From positions 1 through 8,803 of IMG/VR virus record IMGVR_UViG_2687453449_000001: a stretch of 8,803 bases of DNA. One strand, written 5' to 3'. Made by a program: the position numbers and the translations under genes. The notes under the pieces are model-generated. The model was not told the DNA's origin, did not search any database, and was given only the letters and a program-made list of their open reading frames with translations. Each line of letters begins with the position of its first letter. The stretch's first letter is position 1. Below, piece after piece: positions 1-8,803 of this stretch. The DNA is from a virus (taxonomy: Duplodnaviria; Heunggongvirae; Uroviricota; Caudoviricetes).

Positions 1-900
1 TTAACGCAACAGTGGACAATCTGGTGGTAATCGACAACGCAACGCTGCCGGAAGTATTTCAATATGAAAATTTTGCCCACTCAACGGTTCGCCATCAAGA
101 TTAAAGGTGATGTCGTGTGGTGCCTGAATATCAAACCACGACGAAGCGCCTTCGATAATATTCGGGTTATCTTCGTCAGATTTTAAGGTTGATACGAGAG
201 CCGGAAGTATTTCATCGCCGGTAAAAATGCGCAGTTGCAGCAAGCCATCGTTAATTAACGCGTTCGGACACAATTGCTGACCGCCACCGGCCTGACGCCC
301 GTTACCAATACCAATGACCAGGGCGTCACCTTGCCAGTGAAAGTTTTCACCGCGGATTTCACAACGGTCCGGTTGCAGAGTATCCATGCGCATTAAGCCA
401 TGAATGATGTAAGAGACGCCACCCAGCGCGGCTTTTAATTTTTCCGGCGTTTCTGTGGTAATACGCGTCCCAAATCCGCCTGTCGCCATATTAATAAAAC
501 AGGTTTGTTTGTTGACCTGCGCCATATCTATCGCAATGGCGTTACCGGCAATTGCCAGTTTCAGCGCCTTATCCAGTGCCTCAGGAATCCCTACACTGGT
601 GGCAAAATCATTGGCGGTTCCTAATGGCAAAATTCCCAGCGCGGGTATGTCATCCCCCTCACACTGAATCAACGCCGTAGAAACTTCATTAATGGTGCCA
701 TCACCACCACCGGCAATCACCGTTGCGACGCCCAACTTCCGGGCCTCCTCTACATATCGTGCGGCATCGCCTTTCTCCCAGGTGACCCGCACATGGATCG
801 TCATTCCTTCCTCACGCAACAGCATAATTGCTTCGCGCAAGGGTAAATTGTCAGTACTTTTGCCATTAAGAATCAGTAAGCTGGCGGGAAATTCTGCCAT
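1..900 (-). CDS. yegS: Lipid kinase YegS (diacylglycerol-kinase-fold)
   Basis: Complete minus-strand ORF: ATG at 898-900, TAA at 1-3, 299 codons. Translation starts [15 protein letters not shown] and contains the GGDG motif; it matches my recollection of E. coli YegS (299 aa). The ORF-track entry 1..1068 is the same frame extended upstream of the real start. Confidence 0.92.
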
Positions 901-1304
901 GATCGTATGTGCCTTTATGATTGGTCTGTAGATAGTGTAGAGCAGAAAAGAAAAGGTGGAGTCAGAACAGGATGAAAGTCGGAGGATAAAAGTCAGTTCA
1001 AGTATGGAGGATTCAGTGGTTACCACCAGGAGCTTGCAATGGGGACAGCGAATACTAACGGCAGCCACCGATAAATTTCAAAAAAGAGAATATACCTAAT
1101 ATTCAACTAAACGGTGGCATCTTCAATATAATATATTAAAGCCCTCATGGAGTTACCCGGAAGGGCCTCCATGTCCGTAATTCCTACTTATGTAGGAAAT
1201 GTTGTACAGAACATTTATTATAATCCTATTCAATTATAATAATCATGCCATTATTATATTTAAACACTAGAGAGTGTCGTTGGTATTTAATGGGGGAAGG
1301 TGAG
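901..1304. promoter_or_regulatory. AT-rich divergent intergenic region between yegS and yegR (putative promoters)
   Basis: 404 bp, AT-rich. TATAAT hexamers at 1219-1224 and 1235-1240 lie upstream of yegR. Imperfect palindrome TTCCTAC-TTAT-GTAGGAA at 1181-1198. Pattern-based only; no transcription start is anchored. Confidence 0.3.
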
Positions 1305-1622
1305 ATGAAAAAGATAGCTGCTATATCATTAATTAGTATTTTTATTATGTCTGGTTGTGCTGTGCATAATGATGAGACAAGTATCGGTAAATTTGGTCTT
1401 GCATATAAAAGTAATATTCAGCGTAAACTCGATAACCAATACTACACCGAAGCCGAAGCTTCTTTAGCCAGGGGTAGAATATCTGGTGCAGAAAATATAG
1501 TAAAAAATGATGCAACTCATTTCTGTGTTACTCAGGGCAAAAAAATGCAAATAGTTGAGCTGAAGACAGAAGGTGTAGGATTACATGGTGTCGCTCGTCT
1601 GACATTCAAATGTGGAGAGTGA
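1305..1622 (+). CDS. yegR: Small putative lipoprotein YegR
   Basis: ATG at 1305 preceded by GGAAGGTGAG (Shine-Dalgarno-like); TGA at 1620-1622; 105 codons. N-terminus MKKIAAISLISIFIMSGC has a signal peptide ending in a lipobox-like MSGC. Gene is strongly AT-rich (~36% GC). Length and position next to yegS match my memory of K-12 yegR. The ORF-track entry 1245..1622 is an upstream extension without a ribosome-binding site. Confidence 0.75.
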   Translation: MKKIAAISLISIFIMSGCAVHNDETSIGKFGLAYKSNIQRKLDNQYYTEAEASLARGRISGAENIVKNDATHFCVTQGKKMQIVELKTEGVGLHGVARLTFKCGE

Positions 1623-1781
1623 GAATATTTTTTGGTAAGCGTCAAATATGCGCGTTCTGGCTGTGCGTAGCCGGAACCTGTGGGAGCACGATGCCGATAA
1701 GTGAAAGGCATCGTGCTATGAAGGAGGATTCTATCGATGTGGTCAATGGAAGACGGTTACCAGAGATAGGGCTTATGCATA

Positions 1782-1808
1782 AAAAAATAAGCCCGTGTAA
1801 GGGAGATT
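1782..1808. repeat. attL core of P2-like prophage (identical to the 3' end of the cyaR sRNA terminator)
   Basis: AAAAAATAAGCCCGTGTAAGGGAGATT is seen at 1782-1808. Its reverse complement, AATCTCCCTTACACGGGCTTATTTTTT, is the 3' terminus of E. coli CyaR (RyeE) as I recall it, which is the known P2 attachment core. Sequence to the right diverges from cyaR and leads into int (phage arm); sequence to the left is host flank. Confidence 0.75.
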
Positions 1809-1887
1809 TAGGGTGTCATCCGTAGGGGCTTTCAACGGTACAATGCGGGTTTGAGCGGCATAAATGACCACTGAAAGCCCTTAAACG

Positions 1888-2901
1888 TTACTCTACTGTG
1901 GACACTGTGTGGACACTCTCGGCCTCAGTACCACCTCTCAGCGGATTAAGAGAAATGGCGTCCTGAAGGTACTCTGGAGCAAAATGAGCGTAAACCATAG
2001 TTTGCTCAATCCGCGTGTGACCTAGTATCCGTTGTAGCGTGATAATACTTCCTCCATTAATCATGAAATGAGTGGCAAAGCTGTGCCTTAGTGCATGTGT
2101 GGCTTGCCCCATTGGCAAATCCGGTTTTATTGCTTTCATTGTTCGTCTGAAGCGAGGGTAATCAGCATCAGGGAATAAAAAACCTCGTTTGTTATCCGCG
2201 ATCATTTTGGCAACAGCCTCTGAGATCGGGACGGTGCGTGGTTTGTTTGTTTTCGTTTTAACAAACGTGACGCGGTTATGAATGATATTTTCTGCTTTCA
2301 AACGAGCTGCTTCTCCCCAACGTGCTCCAGTACTCAGGCAAAGAATCGCAATCTTTTTGTTGTCGCCGTCAAGAGCTGCGAGCAGTAAGGCAATTTCTTC
2401 CTGCGTGAGATAGCCTGTGTCTGGTTTTTCCTCCTTAAGCCTTTTTGTCCCTCTGATAGGGTGCTCACCAAAGTATAACTCCGCTTCAATCAGGGCTGTA
2501 AACATGCCGCTAATACATGTTAAATCACGATTGATACTCGAAGGTTTAATACCCTGACTTCTTCGGGTGGCGCAGTATTGGCTGATAAGCGATTTCGTAA
2601 TTTGAAATGCGCATGGGTCATTCGTTATTTTTGTGAAGATTTCAATTTTTCCAAGATTAGATTTCCCATGCTCTTCGTGTTTACCCTTTAAATCCCACCA
2701 GATCTGTGTCAGCTCCGACAGACGTCGCTTGTCTGTTGGTTTTGATAGCCATTCTTTATTGTGGTGGTTGTACAACGTGTATTTCTCGAAAGCGACAGCT
2801 TCGCTTTTCTTATCAAACTTCCTACGGATGCGTTTTCCATTACGTCCAGTAGGGCGGATGTCCACTTCATATCGACCATCATCGAGTTTTTTGATTGCCA
2901 T
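1888..2901 (-). CDS. int: P2-type tyrosine integrase
   Basis: 337-codon minus-strand ORF: ATG at 2899-2901, TAA at 1888-1890, GGAGG 8 nt upstream. Tyrosine-recombinase signatures are present: TGARWGE (Arg box), HALRHSFAT (HxxR) and LGHTRIEQTMVYAH (catalytic Tyr). Length equals P2 Int (337 aa, from memory). Confidence 0.93.
   Translation of the reverse strand: MAIKKLDDGRYEVDIRPTGRNGKRIRRKFDKKSEAVAFEKYTLYNHHNKEWLSKPTDKRRLSELTQIWWDLKGKHEEHGKSNLGKIEIFTKITNDPCAFQITKSLISQYCATRRSQGIKPSSINRDLTCISGMFTALIEAELYFGEHPIRGTKRLKEEKPDTGYLTQEEIALLLAALDGDNKKIAILCLSTGARWGEAARLKAENIIHNRVTFVKTKTNKPRTVPISEAVAKMIADNKRGFLFPDADYPRFRRTMKAIKPDLPMGQATHALRHSFATHFMINGGSIITLQRILGHTRIEQTMVYAHFAPEYLQDAISLNPLRGGTEAESVHTVSTVE
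1897..1916. repeat. Tandem direct repeats TGTGGACAC x2 (candidate integrase arm-type binding sites)
   Basis: TGTGGACAC at 1897-1905 and 1908-1916, 11-bp period, overlapping the last codons of int. From memory, P2 Int arm sites have the consensus TGTGGACA. Not verified by search. Confidence 0.5.
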
Positions 2902-2954
2902 CAGAAAACCCTCCGAGTGGTGTGTTTTTTTGCGACTACTAATCGTTTTTTTCG

Positions 2955-2977
2955 TGGTGGCTGAAATTTAGCCACCA
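2955..2977. other. Hairpin (8-bp stem TGGTGGCT/AGCCACCA, 7-nt loop) in the C-int intergenic region
   Basis: Perfect inverted repeat seen in sequence, preceded on the plus strand by two T7 runs (2924-2930, 2946-2952). It is not followed by a U-tract on either strand, so it is not a canonical intrinsic terminator. Confidence 0.3.
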
Positions 2978-3016
2978 ATAGTAGGCACTTGTGATGAATA
3001 TATTCACGATGAATTG

Positions 3017-3316
3017 TTAACCAGTCTTTTGACCGGAGTGGGGCGACGTTGTTTCGTTTTGCCCAAAGTGTGCGAGAGCGGGCGCAATTTGCCCGGACTC
3101 AGGAGCGATCTGATTTGTCATGAACCATAAAGTGTATTTGGTGAATTGTGGGGTCTGCAGGATGTTCATCATGACATCTGTTGGAGGTGTTGAACGACCA
3201 CTTTCATAGTAACTCAGCGTGCCATACGGAACCCCTGTTAAATCAGCAAGTTGTTGTCTGCTCAAATACTCTGATTTTCGCATTAAGACTATCTTCTCGC
3301 TTATCGTGTTTGACAT
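3017..3316 (-). CDS. C: Immunity repressor C (helix-turn-helix)
   Basis: 99-codon minus-strand ORF: ATG at 3314-3316, TAA at 3017-3019. Helix-turn-helix-like segment LSRQQLADLTGVPYGTLSYYESG. Same length and position as P2 C (99 aa), upstream of and co-oriented with int. Confidence 0.9.
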   Translation of the reverse strand: MSNTISEKIVLMRKSEYLSRQQLADLTGVPYGTLSYYESGRSTPPTDVMMNILQTPQFTKYTLWFMTNQIAPESGQIAPALAHFGQNETTSPHSGQKTG

Positions 3317-3407
3317 GGTGTTTAGATCTCAATAGTATTTAGTTTAGATGTAGATTGTTTAGTGCTTGGATGTGGGCACTAAAAGGCATTATAAGGCATT
3401 AAACGCA
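3310..3407. promoter_or_regulatory. Lysis-lysogeny switch: face-to-face Pe (rightward) and Pc (leftward) promoters with C operators and cox boxes
   Basis: Seen: TTGACA at 3310-3315, a 17-bp spacer, then TAGTAT at 3333-3338 on the plus strand (candidate Pe). The 8-bp direct repeat GTTTAGAT at 3320-3327 and 3342-3349 (22 bp centre to centre) flanks that -10, as described for P2 operators O1/O2. TATAAT on the minus strand (plus coordinates 3388-3393) is the candidate Pc -10, embedded in three tandem 9-bp repeats TAAAAGGCA, TATAAGGCA, TTAAACGCA (3380-3407) that fit the P2 cox-box consensus TTAAA(G/C)NCA. Promoter and operator identities are by analogy with P2. Confidence 0.6.
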
Positions 3408-3430
3408 ATTCATGAGGGCTGGAGGACGAC

Positions 3431-3706
3431 ATGAGCAAGCAAGTAACACTCATGACTGATGCGATTCCTTATCAGGAGTTCGCAAAACTAATAGGAAAAT
3501 CGACAGGAGCGGTTCGTCGGATGATCGATAAAGGAAAGCTGCCTGTAATTGATATGACCGATCCACAATCAGCTTCAGGTCGTGCAGGTGAATATTGGGT
3601 ATATCTTCCGGCATGGAATAACGGACTAAAACTGGCTTATGAAAGCCGCCCTAAAGAGATTCGTGACGGCTGGTTGATGTGGTTAGGTCTTGGTGAACCA
3701 CGTTAA
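3431..3706 (+). CDS. cox: Cox (excision directionality factor and Pc repressor)
   Basis: 91-codon ORF: ATG at 3431, GGAGG 5 nt upstream, TAA at 3704-3706. Same length and position as P2 Cox. Small basic protein with a helix-turn-helix-like segment. Confidence 0.9.
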   Translation: MSKQVTLMTDAIPYQEFAKLIGKSTGAVRRMIDKGKLPVIDMTDPQSASGRAGEYWVYLPAWNNGLKLAYESRPKEIRDGWLMWLGLGEPR

Positions 3707-3716
3707 GGAGAACCGT

Positions 3717-3887
3717 ATGAATGAGCCTCGTTGTATTGCTCAGTTATTGCGTAACGAAAGCCCCAGGGCGATTGACTTCACCATCACCCACGGTAAGGGG
3801 CGTAAGGGAATCATTATCCGCACCAAAAAACAGAGTCCGTTAAAAAAGGTTCTGACCTTTCTGAAAAGCCGGAGGGTATGGAAATGA
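3717..3887 (+). CDS. Small early protein of unknown function (P2 orf78 position)
   Basis: ATG at 3717 with AAGGAG 7 nt upstream; 56 codons; its TGA (3885-3887) overlaps the B start as ATGA. The ORF-track start at 3690 is a TTG with no ribosome-binding site. Confidence 0.6.
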   Translation: MNEPRCIAQLLRNESPRAIDFTITHGKGRKGIIIRTKKQSPLKKVLTFLKSRRVWK

Positions 3888-4384
3888 CAGTGATGACGCT
3901 CAATCTCGTTGAAAAACAGCCAACAACTATGCGCCGGATAATTGGTAAGCATCTGGCCGTCCCTCGCTGGCAGGAGACATGCGATTATTATAATCAGATG
4001 ATGGAACGCGAACGGTTAACGGTTTGCTTCCATGCGCAGTTAAAACAACGTCACGCAACGATGCGTTTTGAAGAAATGAACGACGTCGAACGTGAACGGC
4101 TGGTTTGTGCAATTGATGAATTGCGTGGGGCATTCTCAAAACGCCGTCAGGTTGGCGCAAGTGAGTATGCATATATTAGTTTTTTAACAGTCAGTCAGCG
4201 TCGCACTTTATTTATGCATGCCGGATTGACTGAAAAAGAATTTAACCAGCCATACTGGCGAATTAATGAGGAATCATGTTACTGGCGTGATGCTTTATTC
4301 CGTGCATTACGTGAATTATTCAGTCTGTTTGAGTATGCGCCGACAATTCTGACGTCGGTAAAACCAGAGCAATATCTGCATTAA
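3884..4384 (+). CDS. B: Replication protein B (DnaB-helicase-associated early protein)
   Basis: ATG at 3884 lies 8 nt after GGAGG (3871-3875) and gives 166 codons, the length I recall for P2 B. The ATG at 3878 is only 2 nt from the Shine-Dalgarno sequence, so it is disfavoured. TAA at 4382-4384. Confidence 0.8.
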   Translation: MTVMTLNLVEKQPTTMRRIIGKHLAVPRWQETCDYYNQMMERERLTVCFHAQLKQRHATMRFEEMNDVERERLVCAIDELRGAFSKRRQVGASEYAYISFLTVSQRRTLFMHAGLTEKEFNQPYWRINEESCYWRDALFRALRELFSLFEYAPTILTSVKPEQYLH

Positions 4385-4447
4385 GTAATTAACCAGAGTT
4401 TTTAACGCACTTAATCGTGCGGGGCTTCTTTTTGCCTGGAGAAAGTC

Positions 4448-4672
4448 ATGCATACAGTTTCTGAAAATCAGTTCGGTAAATACGCATTACTACTGCAACA
4501 GGCCAGAACCGAAGCACAGGCCGACGCTGCGACGCGCTTTTCTTCTCATCTTGACGCCATGATTCGCCACATCACAAAGGCGGAGTTATCCCGCGTGGAG
4601 ATAGTCGAGCTGCTCAGTCAGGAGTCGGAAAAATTTCACAACATCGGATTGTCTCGCGGGGAGGTGCTTTGA
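4448..4672 (+). CDS. Hypothetical early protein (P2 orf80 position)
   Basis: 74 codons; ATG at 4448 with GGAGA 5 nt upstream; its TGA overlaps the next start (TGATG). No recognisable motif. Confidence 0.65.
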
Positions 4673-4974
4673 TGTCCTGTTCTCGTTCAGTTGTTTTACT
4701 GAACAATGCCTTAAAAATCGTCGTTATGAAAAATGGCGATTTGTCTCTTATTCAACTTGGTCTTGATAAAGAAAAACGCGAAATAACTGAATCTGTTATC
4801 GCGATTTATCAGAGTGAATTAAACCTCCTGTCTGATGTGGTCAATTTACTTGTTAAACGCGCTGTATTTCACAAGCAAATTTCCTCCGTGGATGAACTGA
4901 CAAAATTAACGACAGAAATCGCCAGCTATTGCGCTGATGAATTTAAGAAACTGAACGACAAAAGGAGCTGGTAA
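4672..4974 (+). CDS. Hypothetical early protein, compositionally foreign (AT-rich)
   Basis: ATG at 4672 with GGAGG 8 nt upstream; 100 codons; TAA at 4972-4974 overlaps the next start (TAATG). GC is ~35-38% by hand count, against ~48-60% in the flanking phage genes. No recognisable motif. Confidence 0.65.
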   Translation: MSCSRSVVLLNNALKIVVMKNGDLSLIQLGLDKEKREITESVIAIYQSELNLLSDVVNLLVKRAVFHKQISSVDELTKLTTEIASYCADEFKKLNDKRSW

Positions 4975-5198
4975 TGCCGGACAACGTGGATTTTATTCAG
5001 GAACAACAGGCTGAATTACTGGAGCGCCAGATTAACGCGGCAAGGGTAAAACATTGCGGTGCTTCTGCGCTGGTTTGCGAAGAGTGTGACGCGCCAATAC
5101 CTGCTGCCCGTCGTGCGGCTTATCCGTCAGCCACGCGTTGTGTTTCCTGTCAGTCAGTCTTTGAAGCAAAAAACAAACATTACCGGAGAATGGCATGA
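4974..5198 (+). CDS. TraR/DksA-family C4 zinc-finger protein
   Basis: 74 codons; ATG at 4974 with AAGGAG 6 nt upstream. Two CxxC pairs (VCEEC ... RCVSC) about 17 residues apart, typical of the zf-DksA/TraR family carried by many phages. Confidence 0.75.
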   Translation: MPDNVDFIQEQQAELLERQINAARVKHCGASALVCEECDAPIPAARRAAYPSATRCVSCQSVFEAKNKHYRRMA

Positions 5199-5470
5199 GC
5201 ATTCGTATTGAAATTGGCGAACGTTATGTCGTTACCAGTGACAGTTTTCAGTTTATTCTCCACGAGAAAAAGAGAGCGGAAAGTGGTAAAAACGCCGGTC
5301 AGGAGTGGCTGGCGGTGGTTGGTTATTACCCGAAATTAAGCCAGCTCGTTTCCGGCCTGATGCATCACGATATTCTGACCGGAAGCGCAAAGTCTTTTGC
5401 TGATTTAAACGCGCAGGTTGAGCAACTCAGCAGGCGTTGTTCAGAGGCTTTTGGCTCACATGGCCGTTAA
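5195..5470 (+). CDS. Hypothetical early protein (P2 orf83 position)
   Basis: 91 codons; ATG at 5195 overlaps the previous stop (ATGA), GGAG 6 nt upstream; TAA at 5468-5470 lies 11 nt inside the A coding sequence. Confidence 0.65.
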   Translation: MSIRIEIGERYVVTSDSFQFILHEKKRAESGKNAGQEWLAVVGYYPKLSQLVSGLMHHDILTGSAKSFADLNAQVEQLSRRCSEAFGSHGR

Positions 5471-7694
5471 AGCCTCCGGGCGTTTTGTCCCTCCGTCAGC
5501 ATTTGCCGCAGGCACCGGTAAGACGTTTACCGGTGCTTATGCATGGAACGCGCCACGCGAGGCTGTCGGGCGCGAAAGACCCCTTACACGTGACGAGATG
5601 CGTCAGGTGCAAGGTGTTTTATCCACGATTAACCGCCTGCCTTACTTTTTGCGCTCGCTGTTTACTTCACGCTATGACTACATCCGGCGCAATAAAAGCC
5701 CGGTGCACGGGTTTTATTTCCTCACATCCACTTTTCAGCGCCGTTTATGGCCGCGTATTGAGCGCGTGAATCAGCGCCATGAAATGAACACCGACGCGTC
5801 GTTGCTGTTTCTGGCAGAGCGTGACCATTATGCGCGTCTGCCGGGGATGAATGACAAGGAGCTGAAAAAGTTTGCTGCCCGTATCTCATCGCAGCTTTTC
5901 ATGATGTATGAGGAACTCTGCGATGCCTGGGTTGATGCACATGGCGAAAAAGAATTGCTGTTTACGGATGAGGCGCAGGCGCATCTGTATGGTCATGTTG
6001 CTGGCGCTGCACGTGCTTTCAATATTTCCCCGCTCTACTGGAAAAAATACCGTAAAGGACAGATGACCACGAGGCAGGCATATTCTGCCATTGCCCGCCT
6101 GTTTAACGATGAGTGGTGGACTCATCAGCTTAAAGGCCAGCGTATGCGCTGGCATGAGGCGTTACTGATTGCTGTCGGGGAGGTCAATAAAGACCGTTCT
6201 CCTTATGCCAGTAAACATGCCATTCGTGATGTGCGTGCACGCCGCCAGGCAAATCTGGAATTTCTTAAATCGTGTGACCTTGAAAACAGGGAAACCGGCG
6301 AGCGCATCGACCTTATCAGTAAGGTGATGGGCAGTATTTCTAATCCTGAAATTCGCCGGATGGAGCTGATGAACACCATTGCCGGTATTGAGCGTTACGC
6401 CGCCGCAGAGGGTGATGTGGGGATGTTTATCACGCTGACCGCGCCGTCAAAGTATCACCCGACACGTCAGGTCGGAAAAGGCGAAAGTAAAACCGTTCAG
6501 CTTAATCACGGCTGGAACGATGAGGCATTTAATCCAAAGGATGCGCAGCGTTATCTCTGCCGTATCTGGAGCCTGATGCGCACGGCATTCAAGGATAATG
6601 ATTTACAGGTCTACGGTTTGCGAGTCGTCGAGCCACACCACGACGGAACGCCGCACTGGCATATGATGCTTTTTTGTAATCCACGCCAGCGTAACCAGAT
6701 TATCGAAATCATACGTCGCTATGCGCTCAAAGAGGATGGCGACGAAAGAGGAGCCGCGCGAAACCGTTTTCAGGCAAAACATCTTAACCGGGGCGGTGCT
6801 GCGGGGTATATCGCGAAATACATCTCAAAAAACATCGATGGCTATGCACTGGATGGTCAGCTCGATAACGATACCGGCAGGCCGCTGAAAGATACTGCTG
6901 CGGCTGTTACCGCATGGGCGTCAACGTGGCGCATTCCGCAATTTAAAACGGTTGGTCTGCCGACAATGGGGGCTTACCGTGAACTACGCAAATTGCCTCG
7001 CGGCGTCAGCATTGCTGATGAGTTTGACGAGCGCGTCGAGGCTGCACGCGCCGCTGCAGACAGTGGTGATTTTGCGTTGTATATCAGCGCGCAGGGCGGG
7101 GCAAATGTCCCGCGCGATTGTCAGACTGTCAGGGTCGCCCGTAGCCCGTCGGATGACGTTAACGAGTACGAGGAAGAAGTCGAGAGAGTGGTCGGCATTT
7201 ACGCGCCGCATCTCGGCGCGCGTCATATTCATATCACCAGAACGACGGACTGGCGTATTGTGCCGAAAGTTCCGGTCGTTGAGCCTTTGACTTTAAAAAG
7301 CGGCATCGCCGCGCCTCGGAGTCCTGTCAATAACTGTGGAAAGCTCACCGGTGGTGATACTTCGTCACCGGCTCCCACGCCTTCTGAACACGCCGCAGCA
7401 GTGCTTAATCTGGTAGATGACGGTGTTATCGAATGGAATGACCAGGAGGTCGTGAGGGCGCTCAGAGGTGCATTAAAACACGGTCTGAGAAGACCAAACC
7501 GTCAGCAAAGAAACGGAAGCCCGTTAAAACCGCATGAAATAGCGCCATCGGCCAGACTGACTCGGTCGGAACGAATGCAAATTACCCGTATCCGCGTTGA
7601 CCTTGCTCAGAACGGTATCAGGCCACAGCGATGGGAGCTTGAGGCGCTGGCGCGTGGCGCGACCGTAAATTATGACGGGAAAAAATTCGCTTAA
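5460..7694 (+). CDS. A: Rolling-circle replication initiator A (HUH endonuclease)
   Basis: 744 codons from ATG 5460 to TAA 7692-7694. HUH motif PHWHMML at codons 398-404. Paired tyrosines in GYIAKYISK fall at codons 450 and 454 counting from this ATG, the same positions I recall for the P2 A catalytic tyrosines, which supports this start over the TTG at 5418 used by the ORF track. Confidence 0.9.
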   Translation: MAVKASGRFVPPSAFAAGTGKTFTGAYAWNAPREAVGRERPLTRDEMRQVQGVLSTINRLPYFLRSLFTSRYDYIRRNKSPVHGFYFLTSTFQRRLWPRIERVNQRHEMNTDASLLFLAERDHYARLPGMNDKELKKFAARISSQLFMMYEELCDAWVDAHGEKELLFTDEAQAHLYGHVAGAARAFNISPLYWKKYRKGQMTTRQAYSAIARLFNDEWWTHQLKGQRMRWHEALLIAVGEVNKDRSPYASKHAIRDVRARRQANLEFLKSCDLENRETGERIDLISKVMGSISNPEIRRMELMNTIAGIERYAAAEGDVGMFITLTAPSKYHPTRQVGKGESKTVQLNHGWNDEAFNPKDAQRYLCRIWSLMRTAFKDNDLQVYGLRVVEPHHDGTPHWHMMLFCNPRQRNQIIEIIRRYALKEDGDERGAARNRFQAKHLNRGGAAGYIAKYISKNIDGYALDGQLDNDTGRPLKDTAAAVTAWASTWRIPQFKTVGLPTMGAYRELRKLPRGVSIADEFDERVEAARAAADSGDFALYISAQGGANVPRDCQTVRVARSPSDDVNEYEEEVERVVGIYAPHLGARHIHITRTTDWRIVPKVPVVEPLTLKSGIAAPRSPVNNCGKLTGGDTSSPAPTPSEHAAAVLNLVDDGVIEWNDQEVVRALRGALKHGLRRPNRQQRNGSPLKPHEIAPSARLTRSERMQITRIRVDLAQNGIRPQRWELEALARGATVNYDGKKFA
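7311..7330 (+). other. Candidate ori / A-protein nick region inside the A coding sequence
   Basis: GCGCCTCGGAGTCCTGTCAA is seen at 7311-7330. From memory this matches the P2 origin nick region, which is known to lie within the 3' part of gene A. Recall-based; needs alignment to confirm. Confidence 0.4.
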
Positions 7695-7794
7695 CAACCG
7701 AATGCGCCCCCGCGCCAGGGCGGCACGCCGGTCAGTGAGGGTGAATCACCTGACACTGCACCGGCGTCCACCGCCCGACTTTTCAGAGGTAGTC

Positions 7795-8235
7795 ATGATG
7801 ACGCTGATTATTCCGCGAAAGGAGGCTCCTGTATCCGGTGAGGGTACGGTGGTCATCCCGCAACCGGCAGGCGACGAGCCGGTGATTAAAAACACGTTCT
7901 TTTTTCCCGATATCGACCCGAAGCGCGTCCGGGAACGTATGCGCCTTGAGCAGACCGTCGCCCCCGCCCGTCTGCGTGAGGCCATCAAGTCAGGCATGGC
8001 GGAGACGAATGCGGAGCTGTACGAGTACCGCGAACAGAAAATTGCCGCCGGTTTTACGCGTCTGGCGGACGTCCCGGCGGACGACATCGACGGTGAAAGC
8101 ATCAGGGTTTTTTACTACGAGCGCGCTGTGTGTGCGATGGCGACCGCGTCGCTTTATGAGCGTTATCGCGGCGTGGATGCCAGTGCGAAAACTGCTGTTT
8201 CTCAAAGCGGGGCAGGGGGTGACGGCCAGCGGTAA
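7795..8235 (+). pseudogene. L: Truncated head completion/stabilisation gene L fragment (L')
   Basis: ATG-ATG at 7795 with GAGG upstream. Translation MMTLIIPRKEAPVSGEGTVVIPQPAGDEPVIKNTFFFPDIDPKRVRERMRLEQTVAPARLREAIKSG... matches my recollection of P2-family gpL up to about ...YRGVDASAK (~8190). The last 14 codons (TAVSQSGAGGDGQR) are an out-of-frame read of D sequence. 146 codons against ~169 for intact L. Confidence 0.6.
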
Positions 8236-8803
8236 AAAAATCCCGCAGATTACCATCACCCGCAGCGACGGTGACCGTCATCATTTTGCGATTGCTGACC
8301 GTGGAGCCTATACCGGCGTAACGGCAAAGTGGTTACACACCAAAGACCCGAAACCACAAAAGCAGAAGGTAAAACTGAAACGCAAAAAGAAAGAAAAACA
8401 CCTGCGCGCACTGGAGCACCCGAAAGCAAAACCGGTCACGCAGAAGAAAGCGCCAAAAGTACCGGAAGCGCGCGAAGGTGAATACATGGCCGGTGAGGCT
8501 GACAACGTTTTTGCCCTGACTACGGTATATGCCACGAAAGCGCAGGCCATGCGCGCCGCTCAGGCGAAGTGGGATAAACTGCAACGGGGTGTGGCGGAGT
8601 TCTCCATCAGCCTGGCTACCGGTCGTGCAGATATTTACACGGAAACACCGGTTAAAGTGTCAGGCTTTAAGCGCGTCATAGACGAGCAGGACTGGACAAT
8701 CACTAAGGTGACACATTTTCTGAATAATAGCGGCTTCACGACGTCCTTGGAGCTTGAGGTCAGGCTTTCTGATGTGGAGTACGAAACAGAAGATGATGAG
8801 TGA
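8189..8803 (+). pseudogene. yegZ: C-terminal fragment of tail gene D (yegZ-like, D')
   Basis: Frame +2 reads LKAGQGVTASGKKIPQITITRSDGDRHHFAIADRGAYTGVTAKWLHTKDPKPQKQKVKLKRKKKEKHLRALEHPKAKP...RLSDVEYETEDDE with TGA at 8801-8803. This is the C-terminal ~200 residues of P2-family gpD as I recall it, and K-12 yegZ is annotated as such a fragment. There is no plausible start with a ribosome-binding site. The upstream 80 codons of ORF-track entry 7946..8803 are an out-of-frame read of L'. Confidence 0.8.

Follow-up and report, generated by a model that had tools for sequence, protein, structure and literature searches.

A probable cryptic P2 prophage reduced to its lysogeny and early regions at the yegR/cyaR site of an Escherichia coli chromosome

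Whether a prophage with integrase, repressor and replication genes is still a phage, and what it could still do if it is not, is the question raised by a stretch of viral DNA of 8,803 nucleotides (IMG/VR record IMGVR_UViG_2687453449_000001; below, the window). The window was traced to CP013048.1, a finished 4.69-Mb E. coli chromosome recorded in two samples, of which it is an exact substring (L005 4542-13344). Here we describe the element that it carries, which is very probably a defective, cryptic prophage derived from P2 itself and having P2-type immunity, cut to 7,450 bp by two internal illegitimate deletions after Int-mediated integration. Positions 1782-8803 of the window correspond to the left 7,022 bp of this remnant.

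The borders of the element are defined by two perfect copies of a 27-bp att core, located at L005 6323-6349 and 13746-13772, 7,423 bp apart, with 0 expected by chance. Position 1782 is the exact first base of the left copy (attL core, 1782-1808, plus strand), which is identical to the P2 attP core (24356-24382). The remnant is integrated in the E. coli chromosome at yegR/cyaR, a familiar P2 attachment site. The integration target is the 3' end of cyaR, as the CyaR RNA (Rfam, 100.7 bits) overlaps the attR core; a tRNA target was ruled out, with 0 tRNA genes in the window. The insertion at the attachment site was precise, since the empty site, rebuilt by joining the flanks across one core, is present in one piece (200/200) in other strains such as ATCC 8739.

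Both att sites are complete. In attL, the Cox-binding region (1825-1898, plus strand) has one mismatch in 74 nt (73/74) to the annotated P2 Cox site (24399-24472), and the Int arm-binding site of the P' arm (1896-1922, plus strand) is identical to P2 24470-24496 at 27/27 positions, while the P arm at attR matches P2 at 28/28 positions. The IHF site of attR has five mismatches to that of P2. Damage to this site was ruled out by the presence of the same allele in FT130, in K-12 and in the isolated phage P2_4C9, and because it also occurs in an isolated phage, the variant is, on this comparison, a natural allele. Beyond the end of the window lie, in order, ogr, a terminator, the P arm with the IHF site, the attR core, cyaR and yegQ, and nothing else of the prophage. 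The Ogr protein is identical to that of P2 (72/72); its gene starts 82 nt past the window end (L005 13426-13644) and adjoins attR. A sequence-only reading of the window had pointed to ogr, the attR core and cyaR as features to look for downstream, and all three are present.

A blastn comparison with the P2 genome (NC_001895) resolved the phage sequence into three collinear blocks, which together with the ogr/attR end account for all similarity to P2 across the 22 kb of source contig examined. The first block (1782-7688) matches P2 24356-30262 at 97.6% identity without gaps, from attL to codon 743 of gene A. The second (7691-8190) matches P2 5897-6395 at 97.8% identity, and the third (8184-8803) matches P2 23335-23954 at 95.5% identity. 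At the first deletion junction (7688-7691), P2 30262 is joined to P2 5897 with two unmatched bases (GC), and about 9.2 kb relative to P2 has been lost, comprising the 3' end of A, orf91, tin, old, cos, Q, P, O, N and M. At the second (8184-8190), P2 6395 is joined to P2 23335 across a 7-bp ambiguous overlap (TGxGAAA, of which GAAA is exact); this deletion of 16.9 kb removed the 3' end of L, the genes X through U and codons 1-182 of D.

The sequence between and beyond the junctions holds gene fragments, in line with the sequence-only reading, which had described L and D as such. The second block (plus strand) opens with the M stop codon and the M-L spacer, followed by an L fragment that begins at 7795, keeps codons 1-132 of 169 and continues in frame to 8235 through out-of-frame D sequence; it aligns to positions 1-103 of 139 of the Pfam model Phage_GPL, and L is thus a partial gene. 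The D fragment (8186-8803, plus strand) consists of the C-terminal 205 codons of this tail gene (codons 183-387 of 387) and its stop, lacks its own start codon and promoter, and covers positions 152-304 of 305 of Phage_GPD, again a partial gene. An intact prophage would have been indicated by L and D of full length or by structural genes immediately beyond the window; both genes are truncated here, and only the segment from ogr to yegQ follows.

Since yegS, yegR and the three P2 blocks account for the whole window, no space is left for terminase, capsid, lysis or tail genes, none of which the earlier reading had seen. No segments of the terminase (P, M), portal (Q) or scaffold/capsid (O, N) genes were found in the window or in the 22 kb of contig, and nothing was found of the lysis genes (Y, K, lysABC) or the tail and baseplate operons (R, S, V-G, FI-D), the L and D fragments being their sole remains. 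The 19-nt cos sequence is absent from the window, as had been claimed, and from the 22 kb of the source contig. These 22 kb include 8.5 kb downstream of the window, and the suggestion that the element might be packaged from a cos site surviving there did not hold; without cos, the remnant is unpackageable. The overall description, of a P2 prophage that retains little but its lysogeny and early/replication modules and is unable to form particles, is therefore borne out by the blastn map of retained and missing segments. Neither the A-cos interval nor the fun(Z) position carries defence cargo, both being deleted, and the sole PADLOC matches were C and Cox, generic DNA-binding proteins that weakly matched regulator models. 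Traits of P4-like satellites (an own cos, sid, psu, delta or alpha primase) are likewise missing from the element, which is P2-collinear throughout and without extra DNA; all called genes fall into Pfam families of P2 early genes.

The lysogeny module is preserved almost without change. The int gene (1888-2901, minus strand) encodes a full-length tyrosine integrase of 337 aa (Pfam Phage_integrase; phrog_1, integrase) that differs from P2 Int by F143Y and E161D. The immunity repressor C (3017-3316, minus strand; 99 aa; Pfam HTH_3) is identical to P2 C at 99/99 residues, and Cox (3431-3706, plus strand; 91 aa; Pfam Phage_Cox), the excisionase and repressor of Pc, is identical at 91/91. Between them, the divergent lysis/lysogeny switch (C/Pe-Pc/cox, 3310-3413) has all of its annotated P2 elements (P2 25884-25987) unchanged, namely the promoter Pe (-35 at 3310-3315, -10 at 3333-3338), which was also recovered by a consensus scan (TTGACA-17-TAGTAT, 3310-3338), the operators O1 (3320-3327) and O2 (3342-3349), and the promoter Pc (-10 at 3388-3393, -35 at 3408-3413). 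The two mismatches to P2 in the region both fall outside these elements, at 3396 in the Pc spacer and at 3421 just upstream of cox. The switch is thus intact, as was first read from the window, and the superinfection immunity to homoimmune P2-type phages predicted from it is well supported, because C, both promoters and both operators match P2 exactly.

The early operon follows with orf78 (3717-3887, plus strand; 56 aa; phrog_273), which has one substitution relative to P2, and the replication gene B (3884-4384, plus strand; 166 aa; Pfam Phage_RepB), which has four. A terminator-like hairpin 3' of B (4406-4421) was seen in two analyses. The next four genes, all on the plus strand, are full length: orf80 (4448-4672; two substitutions; DUF2732), orf81 (4672-4974; four; DUF5405), orf82 (4974-5198; one; zf-dskA_traR) and orf83 (5195-5470; three; DUF5405). 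PADLOC returned no defence match among orf80, orf81, orf82 and orf83.

The exception is gene A, encoding the rolling-circle replication endonuclease, for which the earlier listing of intact genes has to be corrected: int, C, cox and B are full length relative to P2, and A has lost 18 codons. The truncated gene (A', 5460-7694, plus strand) encodes 743 native residues and one foreign alanine, and its ORF terminates on the former stop codon of gene M. The deletion begins 57 nt before the A stop, so the last 18 of the 761 residues of P2 gpA are gone. The Phage_GPA domain (residues 133-462) with Y450 and Y454 is present, as is the ori region inside A (7266-7366, plus strand), whose nick site at 7318 corresponds to the P2 rep_origin at 29892; over 101 nt it differs from P2 at two positions, neither of them close to the nick. 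The lost tail includes a C-terminal motif, YPVADEWPGF, that is conserved among relatives of gpA, none of which stops as early as A'. Because A lacks this motif, the replication competence of the remnant is doubtful, and the element may be dead in this respect. The earlier view that it might excise and replicate hence stands in its first part, excision being plausible because nothing is missing from Int, Cox, attL or attR, and is weakened in its second by the loss of the A tail. An AlphaFold model of full-length gpA, built from a 55-sequence alignment, was poor overall (mean pLDDT 47, pTM 0.30) and allows at most a guarded comment on the last 60 residues; a literature search on the gpA C-terminus found nothing relevant. 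The conserved C-terminal motif of gpA-family proteins may be of interest in its own right to those who work on P2 replication.

The closest known system is phage P2 (Peduovirus P2), which has the same att core, Int, switch elements, B, orf78-83, ori and gene order as the remnant, with C, Cox and Ogr 100% identical and 97.6% nucleotide identity over 5.9 kb, but which also has the approximately 26 kb that the remnant lost (the A 3' end, orf91, tin, old, cos, the head, packaging, lysis and tail genes, and fun(Z)). The P2 attachment sites and the K-12 remnant were reportedly the subject of a 1992 study by Barreiro and Haggard-Ljungquist in J Bacteriol. This K-12 element, PR-X (ogr-D', with ogrK and the D' fragment yegZ), shares with the present one the yegR/cyaR site, the D'-ogr-attR right end and decay by internal deletion, but no more than 629 bp of it survive: a deletion that begins within the attL core and ends in D (P2 ~23740) has taken out int, C, cox, B and A. 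A common origin of the two was ruled out by 16 differences among 643 positions of D'-ogr-attR and by their other breakpoints; judged from these, they are independent.

The E. coli B prophage (REL606/BL21; P2*B) occupies the same site, is also defective and likewise keeps int-C-cox-B-A. Its flank is identical to that of the remnant up to the att core, the first difference falling at window position 1805. It is heteroimmune, however, with no nucleotide match to window 3147-3452 and with C and Cox 65% and 84% identical, respectively, and its A is full length; an ABC-three-component system serves as defence cargo, and part of the portal gene is left together with several baseplate and tail genes. 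Identity with the E. coli B prophage was ruled out by the different immunity region, despite the 100% identical flank. The partial P2 prophage of FT130 (NZ_CP040090), at the same site, is 98.1% identical over window 1-7688 and shows 2 differences in about 578 nt of the D' end, ogr and attR. It also joins the M-L spacer to D', but with different breakpoints. In FT130, A is complete and is accompanied by a reverse-transcriptase cargo gene; Q, half of P and part of M also survive there, and D' is down to 150 nt. P4-like satellites resemble the remnant in their small size, integrated state and interaction with P2 regulators, and Cox and Ogr act on P4 promoters (PMC3936717); these satellites have cos and their own replication and helper-manipulation genes, whereas the remnant has neither and is pure P2 sequence. 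The genome paper of E. coli W tabulates the occupants of the cyaR site as Wphi2, ogr-D', P2*B or empty (PMC3032704).

All ten retained ORFs (5.9 kb) are open, 10/10 without a frameshift or internal stop, which fits a very recent deletion and equally fits selection for retention. Under the latter, the region from int to A would be a domesticated immunity island, kept for beneficial C immunity or early-gene activity after the lethal late genes were purged. The identity of C and Cox to their P2 counterparts is in favor of this, as is the fact that three independent remnants at the locus (in the present strain, FT130 and REL606) keep int-to-A and lose late genes. We nevertheless consider it rather unlikely, since the position beside A that holds cargo in relatives (tin/old in P2, the ABC-three-component system in REL606, the reverse transcriptase in FT130) is deleted here, no PADLOC defence protein is left, and K-12 lost the entire int-to-A block. 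The event also looks young. No locus covering 80% or more of window 7560-8320 was found in 5,426 complete E. coli genomes, the 33-mer spanning junction 1 was absent from metagenome contigs and that spanning junction 2 from GTDB species representatives. Because the junctions are absent elsewhere and the exact A' protein is recorded on a single contig, the deletion pattern appears private to one strain, which again argues against selected retention. That int-C-cox-B-A are retained at yegR/cyaR by selection as host-domesticated immunity modules, with A' perhaps also interfering with incoming P2-type replication, is an improbable proposal.

The presence of Int, Cox, both complete att sites, B and ori could also suggest a mobilisable, satellite-like mini-replicon that excises, replicates via A and ori and hijacks a helper P2-like phage. 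With no cos in the element or the surrounding 22 kb, a P2-type terminase cannot package it; in addition, every base is P2-collinear without sid, psu, delta or a primase, the truncation of A has cost it a conserved motif, and a homoimmune helper would be repressed by the C protein of the element itself, so that we find such a role very improbable. That the A/L and L/D junctions are artefacts, produced by the collapse of an intact P2 prophage during assembly, is hardly credible. The junctions do occur in no other complete genome, and two similar P2-like prophage copies are known to be hard to assemble (PMC3032704), but the chromosome is finished and was recorded in two samples, the three blocks retain P2 order and orientation, junction 2 has the short microhomology typical of real illegitimate deletions, and comparable real deletions are found at this locus in FT130, REL606 and K-12.

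Under the preferred reading of a cryptic P2 prophage, Int-mediated site-specific recombination would have placed P2 into the yegR/cyaR site of E. coli. One deletion would then have begun 57 nt short of the A terminus, taken in orf91, tin, old and the cos junction and stopped at the M stop codon, and another would have extended from L codon 132 to D codon 182. These steps would leave attL, int, C, Pe/Pc/O1/O2, cox, orf78, B, orf80-83, A' with ori, the dead L and D fragments, ogr and attR. In the lysogen, C produced from Pc would repress Pe and confer immunity against superinfection by phages of the P2 immunity type; protection against heteroimmune relatives of the E. coli B/Hy dis type is not expected. 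Int and Cox with IHF could excise the remnant at the low spontaneous rate typical of P2, and neither lysis nor particles, packaging or P4 helper function would be expected from it. These predictions concern the 22 kb examined of the 4.69-Mb chromosome, and a second P2-like prophage or a P4 satellite elsewhere could interact with the remnant.

Remnants of this kind are well known from K-12 ogr-D' (PR-X) and the defective P2 of E. coli B, and the present one adds one more stage to the known P2 decay series at the cyaR site, which leads from the intact phage through partial prophages of the B or FT130 type and the int-to-A' remnant to the K-12 ogr-D' scar. Its relevance goes little beyond correct annotation. 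The strain is predicted to be immune to phages of P2 immunity and useless as a P4 helper, which matters if it is used as a phage host, and the early region would still be rescuable, its alleles being potentially donated to incoming P2-like phages through homologous recombination.

The element is a P2-like prophage reduced to its lysogeny and replication modules, as the sequence-only reading had proposed, but its A gene is 3'-truncated within a conserved motif and cos is also absent downstream. All 8,803 bases of the window were assigned by listing ORFs and mapping blastn matches to phage P2 (NC_001895). Beyond yegS (1-900, minus strand) and yegR (1305-1622) lie three P2 blocks in the order and orientation of a P2 prophage: window 1782-7688, matching P2 24356-30262 (97.6% identity, 139 mismatches, no gaps); window 7691-8190, matching P2 5897-6395 (97.8%); and window 8184-8803, matching P2 23335-23954 (95.5%). 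The 27-bp P2 att core begins precisely at position 1782, proposed earlier as the start, and the window holds no tRNA genes.

Only one contig on record encodes the truncated A protein, namely the E. coli chromosome CP013048.1 (4.69 Mb; GCA_001455405.1), of which the window is an exact substring (4542-13344 of the examined stretch, L005). Past the window end, this contig continues with ogr, whose protein is identical to P2 Ogr (72/72), the ogr terminator, the Int P arm (28/28 versus P2) with the IHF site, a second, perfect copy of the 27-bp core (attR, L005 13746-13772) overlapped by cyaR (Rfam CyaR_RyeE, 100.7 bits), and yegQ, giving an element of 7,450 bp. Neither further P2 homology nor the cos 19-mer was found in 22 kb of the source contig; a cos surviving beyond the window had been left as the only route to packaging. 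When the two flanks are joined across one core, the resulting 200-nt sequence is found in one piece (200/200) in empty-site strains such as ATCC 8739; the element is therefore a precise site-specific insertion whose interior was lost later. The site is empty, or holds only a very small remnant, in about 4,200 of 5,426 complete genomes.

The interior was lost at two junctions. At window 7688/7691, P2 position 30262 is joined to 5897 with two unmatched bases, and approximately 9.2 kb relative to P2 is gone, comprising the A tail, orf91, tin, old, the cos junction, Q, P, O, N, and M. At window 8184-8190, an imperfect 7-bp microhomology, exact for GAAA, links L codon 132 with D codon 182; here 16.9 kb is gone, comprising the 3' end of L, X, Y, K, lysABC, R, S, orf30, V-G, fun(Z), FI-U, and the 5' half of D. 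Pfam coordinates (GPL 1-103 of 139; GPD 152-304 of 305) confirm the earlier view of L and D as fragments, termed here L' and D'. The arrangement of int to A', L', D', and ogr was absent from the other complete E. coli genomes, metagenome contigs, and species representatives searched, and thus, while this type of element is already well known, its deletion pattern is new and private.

Codon-by-codon comparison with P2 revealed full-length int (337 aa, two substitutions), C (99 aa) and cox (91 aa), both without differences, orf78 (56 aa, one), B (166 aa, four), orf80 (74 aa, two), orf81 (100 aa, four), orf82 (74 aa, one), and orf83 (91 aa, three). The switch also stands as originally described: the Pe -35/-10, O1, O2, and Pc -10/-35 elements are the P2 versions, the two mismatches in the region fall outside annotated elements, and Pe was recovered independently by a consensus scan. 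In attL, the Cox-binding region matches P2 at 73 of 74 positions and the P' arm at 27 of 27. The attR IHF site differs from P2 at five positions, which might have indicated damage; this was ruled out because the identical allele occurs in the isolated phage P2_4C9, K-12, and FT130 (NZ_CP040090), and the site is therefore a natural variant. Across window 1782-8803 and L005 12725-13772, mismatches to P2 are uneven: a 250-nt interval contains 1-3 of them over C, cox, and the 5' end of int and 13-16 over the final 400 nt of A', and D' diverges by 4.5%. The segment of the D' end, ogr, and attR is near-identical in FT130 (two differences in ~578 nt), and phage P2_4C9 is nearer to it than P2. Recombinational mosaicism of this kind is usual among P2-like phages.

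The A gene had been read as intact; however, the first deletion starts 57 nt ahead of its stop codon. In the resulting A' ORF (5460-7694), 743 native residues are followed by one foreign alanine, compared with 761 aa in P2 gpA. The ORF is closed by a TAA (7692-7694) that the deletion imported from terminase gene M, where it had been the stop codon (P2 5898-5900). The catalytic Phage_GPA domain (residues 133-462), the Y450/Y454 region, and the ori nick site (window 7318) are kept. Among the top 120 relatives in the database (75-98% identity), 117 could be anchored on W-E-x-x-x-L-x-R-G, yielding 79 distinct tails; these carry 17-35 residues past the anchor versus 10 native ones in A', and none ends as early. 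The missing stretch holds a conserved x-Y-P-V-A-D-E-W-P-G-F, with its W present in 68 of the 79 distinct tails. Y-P-V-A-D-E-W-P-G-F is a conserved C-terminal motif of gpA-family replication endonucleases (P2 gpA residues 744-761; equivalent of window 7689-7745 in relatives), lies outside Pfam Phage_GPA, and may act as a peptide that binds a partner. The AlphaFold model obtained for a full-length relative is poor overall (mean pLDDT 47) with a confident small C-terminal domain (~700-748, pLDDT 70-82) and a low-confidence tail from 749; the start of the motif (744-748) has pLDDT ~70, and from residue 749 the values fall below 50. Read cautiously, this model places the break where the last beta-strand ends, with the loss of a conserved, probably flexible terminal peptide. 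Replication competence of the element with A' appears rather doubtful.

The left flank may carry older traces. Window 1734-1768, in the "bacterial" arm left of the attL core, holds a degenerate version of the P arm of P2 attP (local alignment score 38; shuffles 14.7 +/- 2.2, maximum 26 of 1000), its first 15 nt (TCGATGTGGTCAATG) being identical to P2 24293-24307. Since the flank with this relic is also present in K-12 and at empty sites, attB itself may carry the scar of a far older P2-type attR. The adjoining relic, the low G+C of window 1000-1750 (0.36-0.39 versus ~0.5 around), which includes yegR, and a full-length match of YegR to PHROG family phrog_21109 (function unknown in PHROG; E = 4e-71) hint that yegR is old phage-derived cargo. 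At 1610-1825, the source record calls a gene for a 71-aa ORF that covers the 3' end of yegR and the attL core; this ORF matches no Pfam family and is probably spurious.

What occupies the cyaR locus, a classic P2 attachment site, varies between strains: the E. coli W genome paper (PMC3032704) lists Wphi2 for W, ogr-D' for K-12, and P2*B for B, and gives the site as empty for Crooks. In MG1655, the 629-bp cryptic prophage PR-X (ogrK and yegZ) is annotated there, with a deletion running from inside the attL core into D. PR-X and the element as one remnant was ruled out, since 16 of 643 shared positions differ, and PR-X is therefore independent. The K-12 remnant was reportedly described in a 1992 paper, going by its title as cited in PMC3091744. 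E. coli B REL606, whose flank is identical to the window as far as core position 24, has a heteroimmune prophage that keeps defence cargo and tail genes. Both REL606 and strain CP029371 match window bases 1-1804, differ first at 1805 (att core position 24, G to T), and continue into a heteroimmune prophage; closely related chromosomes therefore took up different P2-type phages at one core. The K-12 and B ogr genes were reported to be functional, and the hybrid phage P2 Hy dis came from the B prophage. FT130 has yet another deletion pattern. The cargo slot immediately after A, a known variable site occupied by tin/old in P2, contains a reverse-transcriptase gene in FT130 (L002, its examined stretch, 15841-17388) and an ABC-three-component system with an AAA ATPase in REL606 (L003, 21838-25529); it is deleted in the window.

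The functional expectations derive from identity to P2, with the roles of C and Cox as given in PMC3936717 and the P2 record notes. The element would provide no lysis, particles, packaging, or P4 helper function, packaging being impossible because cos is absent; no defence cargo is left, and Ogr is intact with no late promoter left inside the element to act on. With attL and attR both complete, Int, Cox, and IHF could excise the element, an outcome for which we see about even chances. Excision would be rare, as in P2, because upon derepression Cox shuts off Pc, the promoter of C and int (PMC3936717). C made from Pc would repress Pe, and immunity to P2-immunity phages is quite likely. The early region would still be usable for homologous recombination with incoming P2-like phages.
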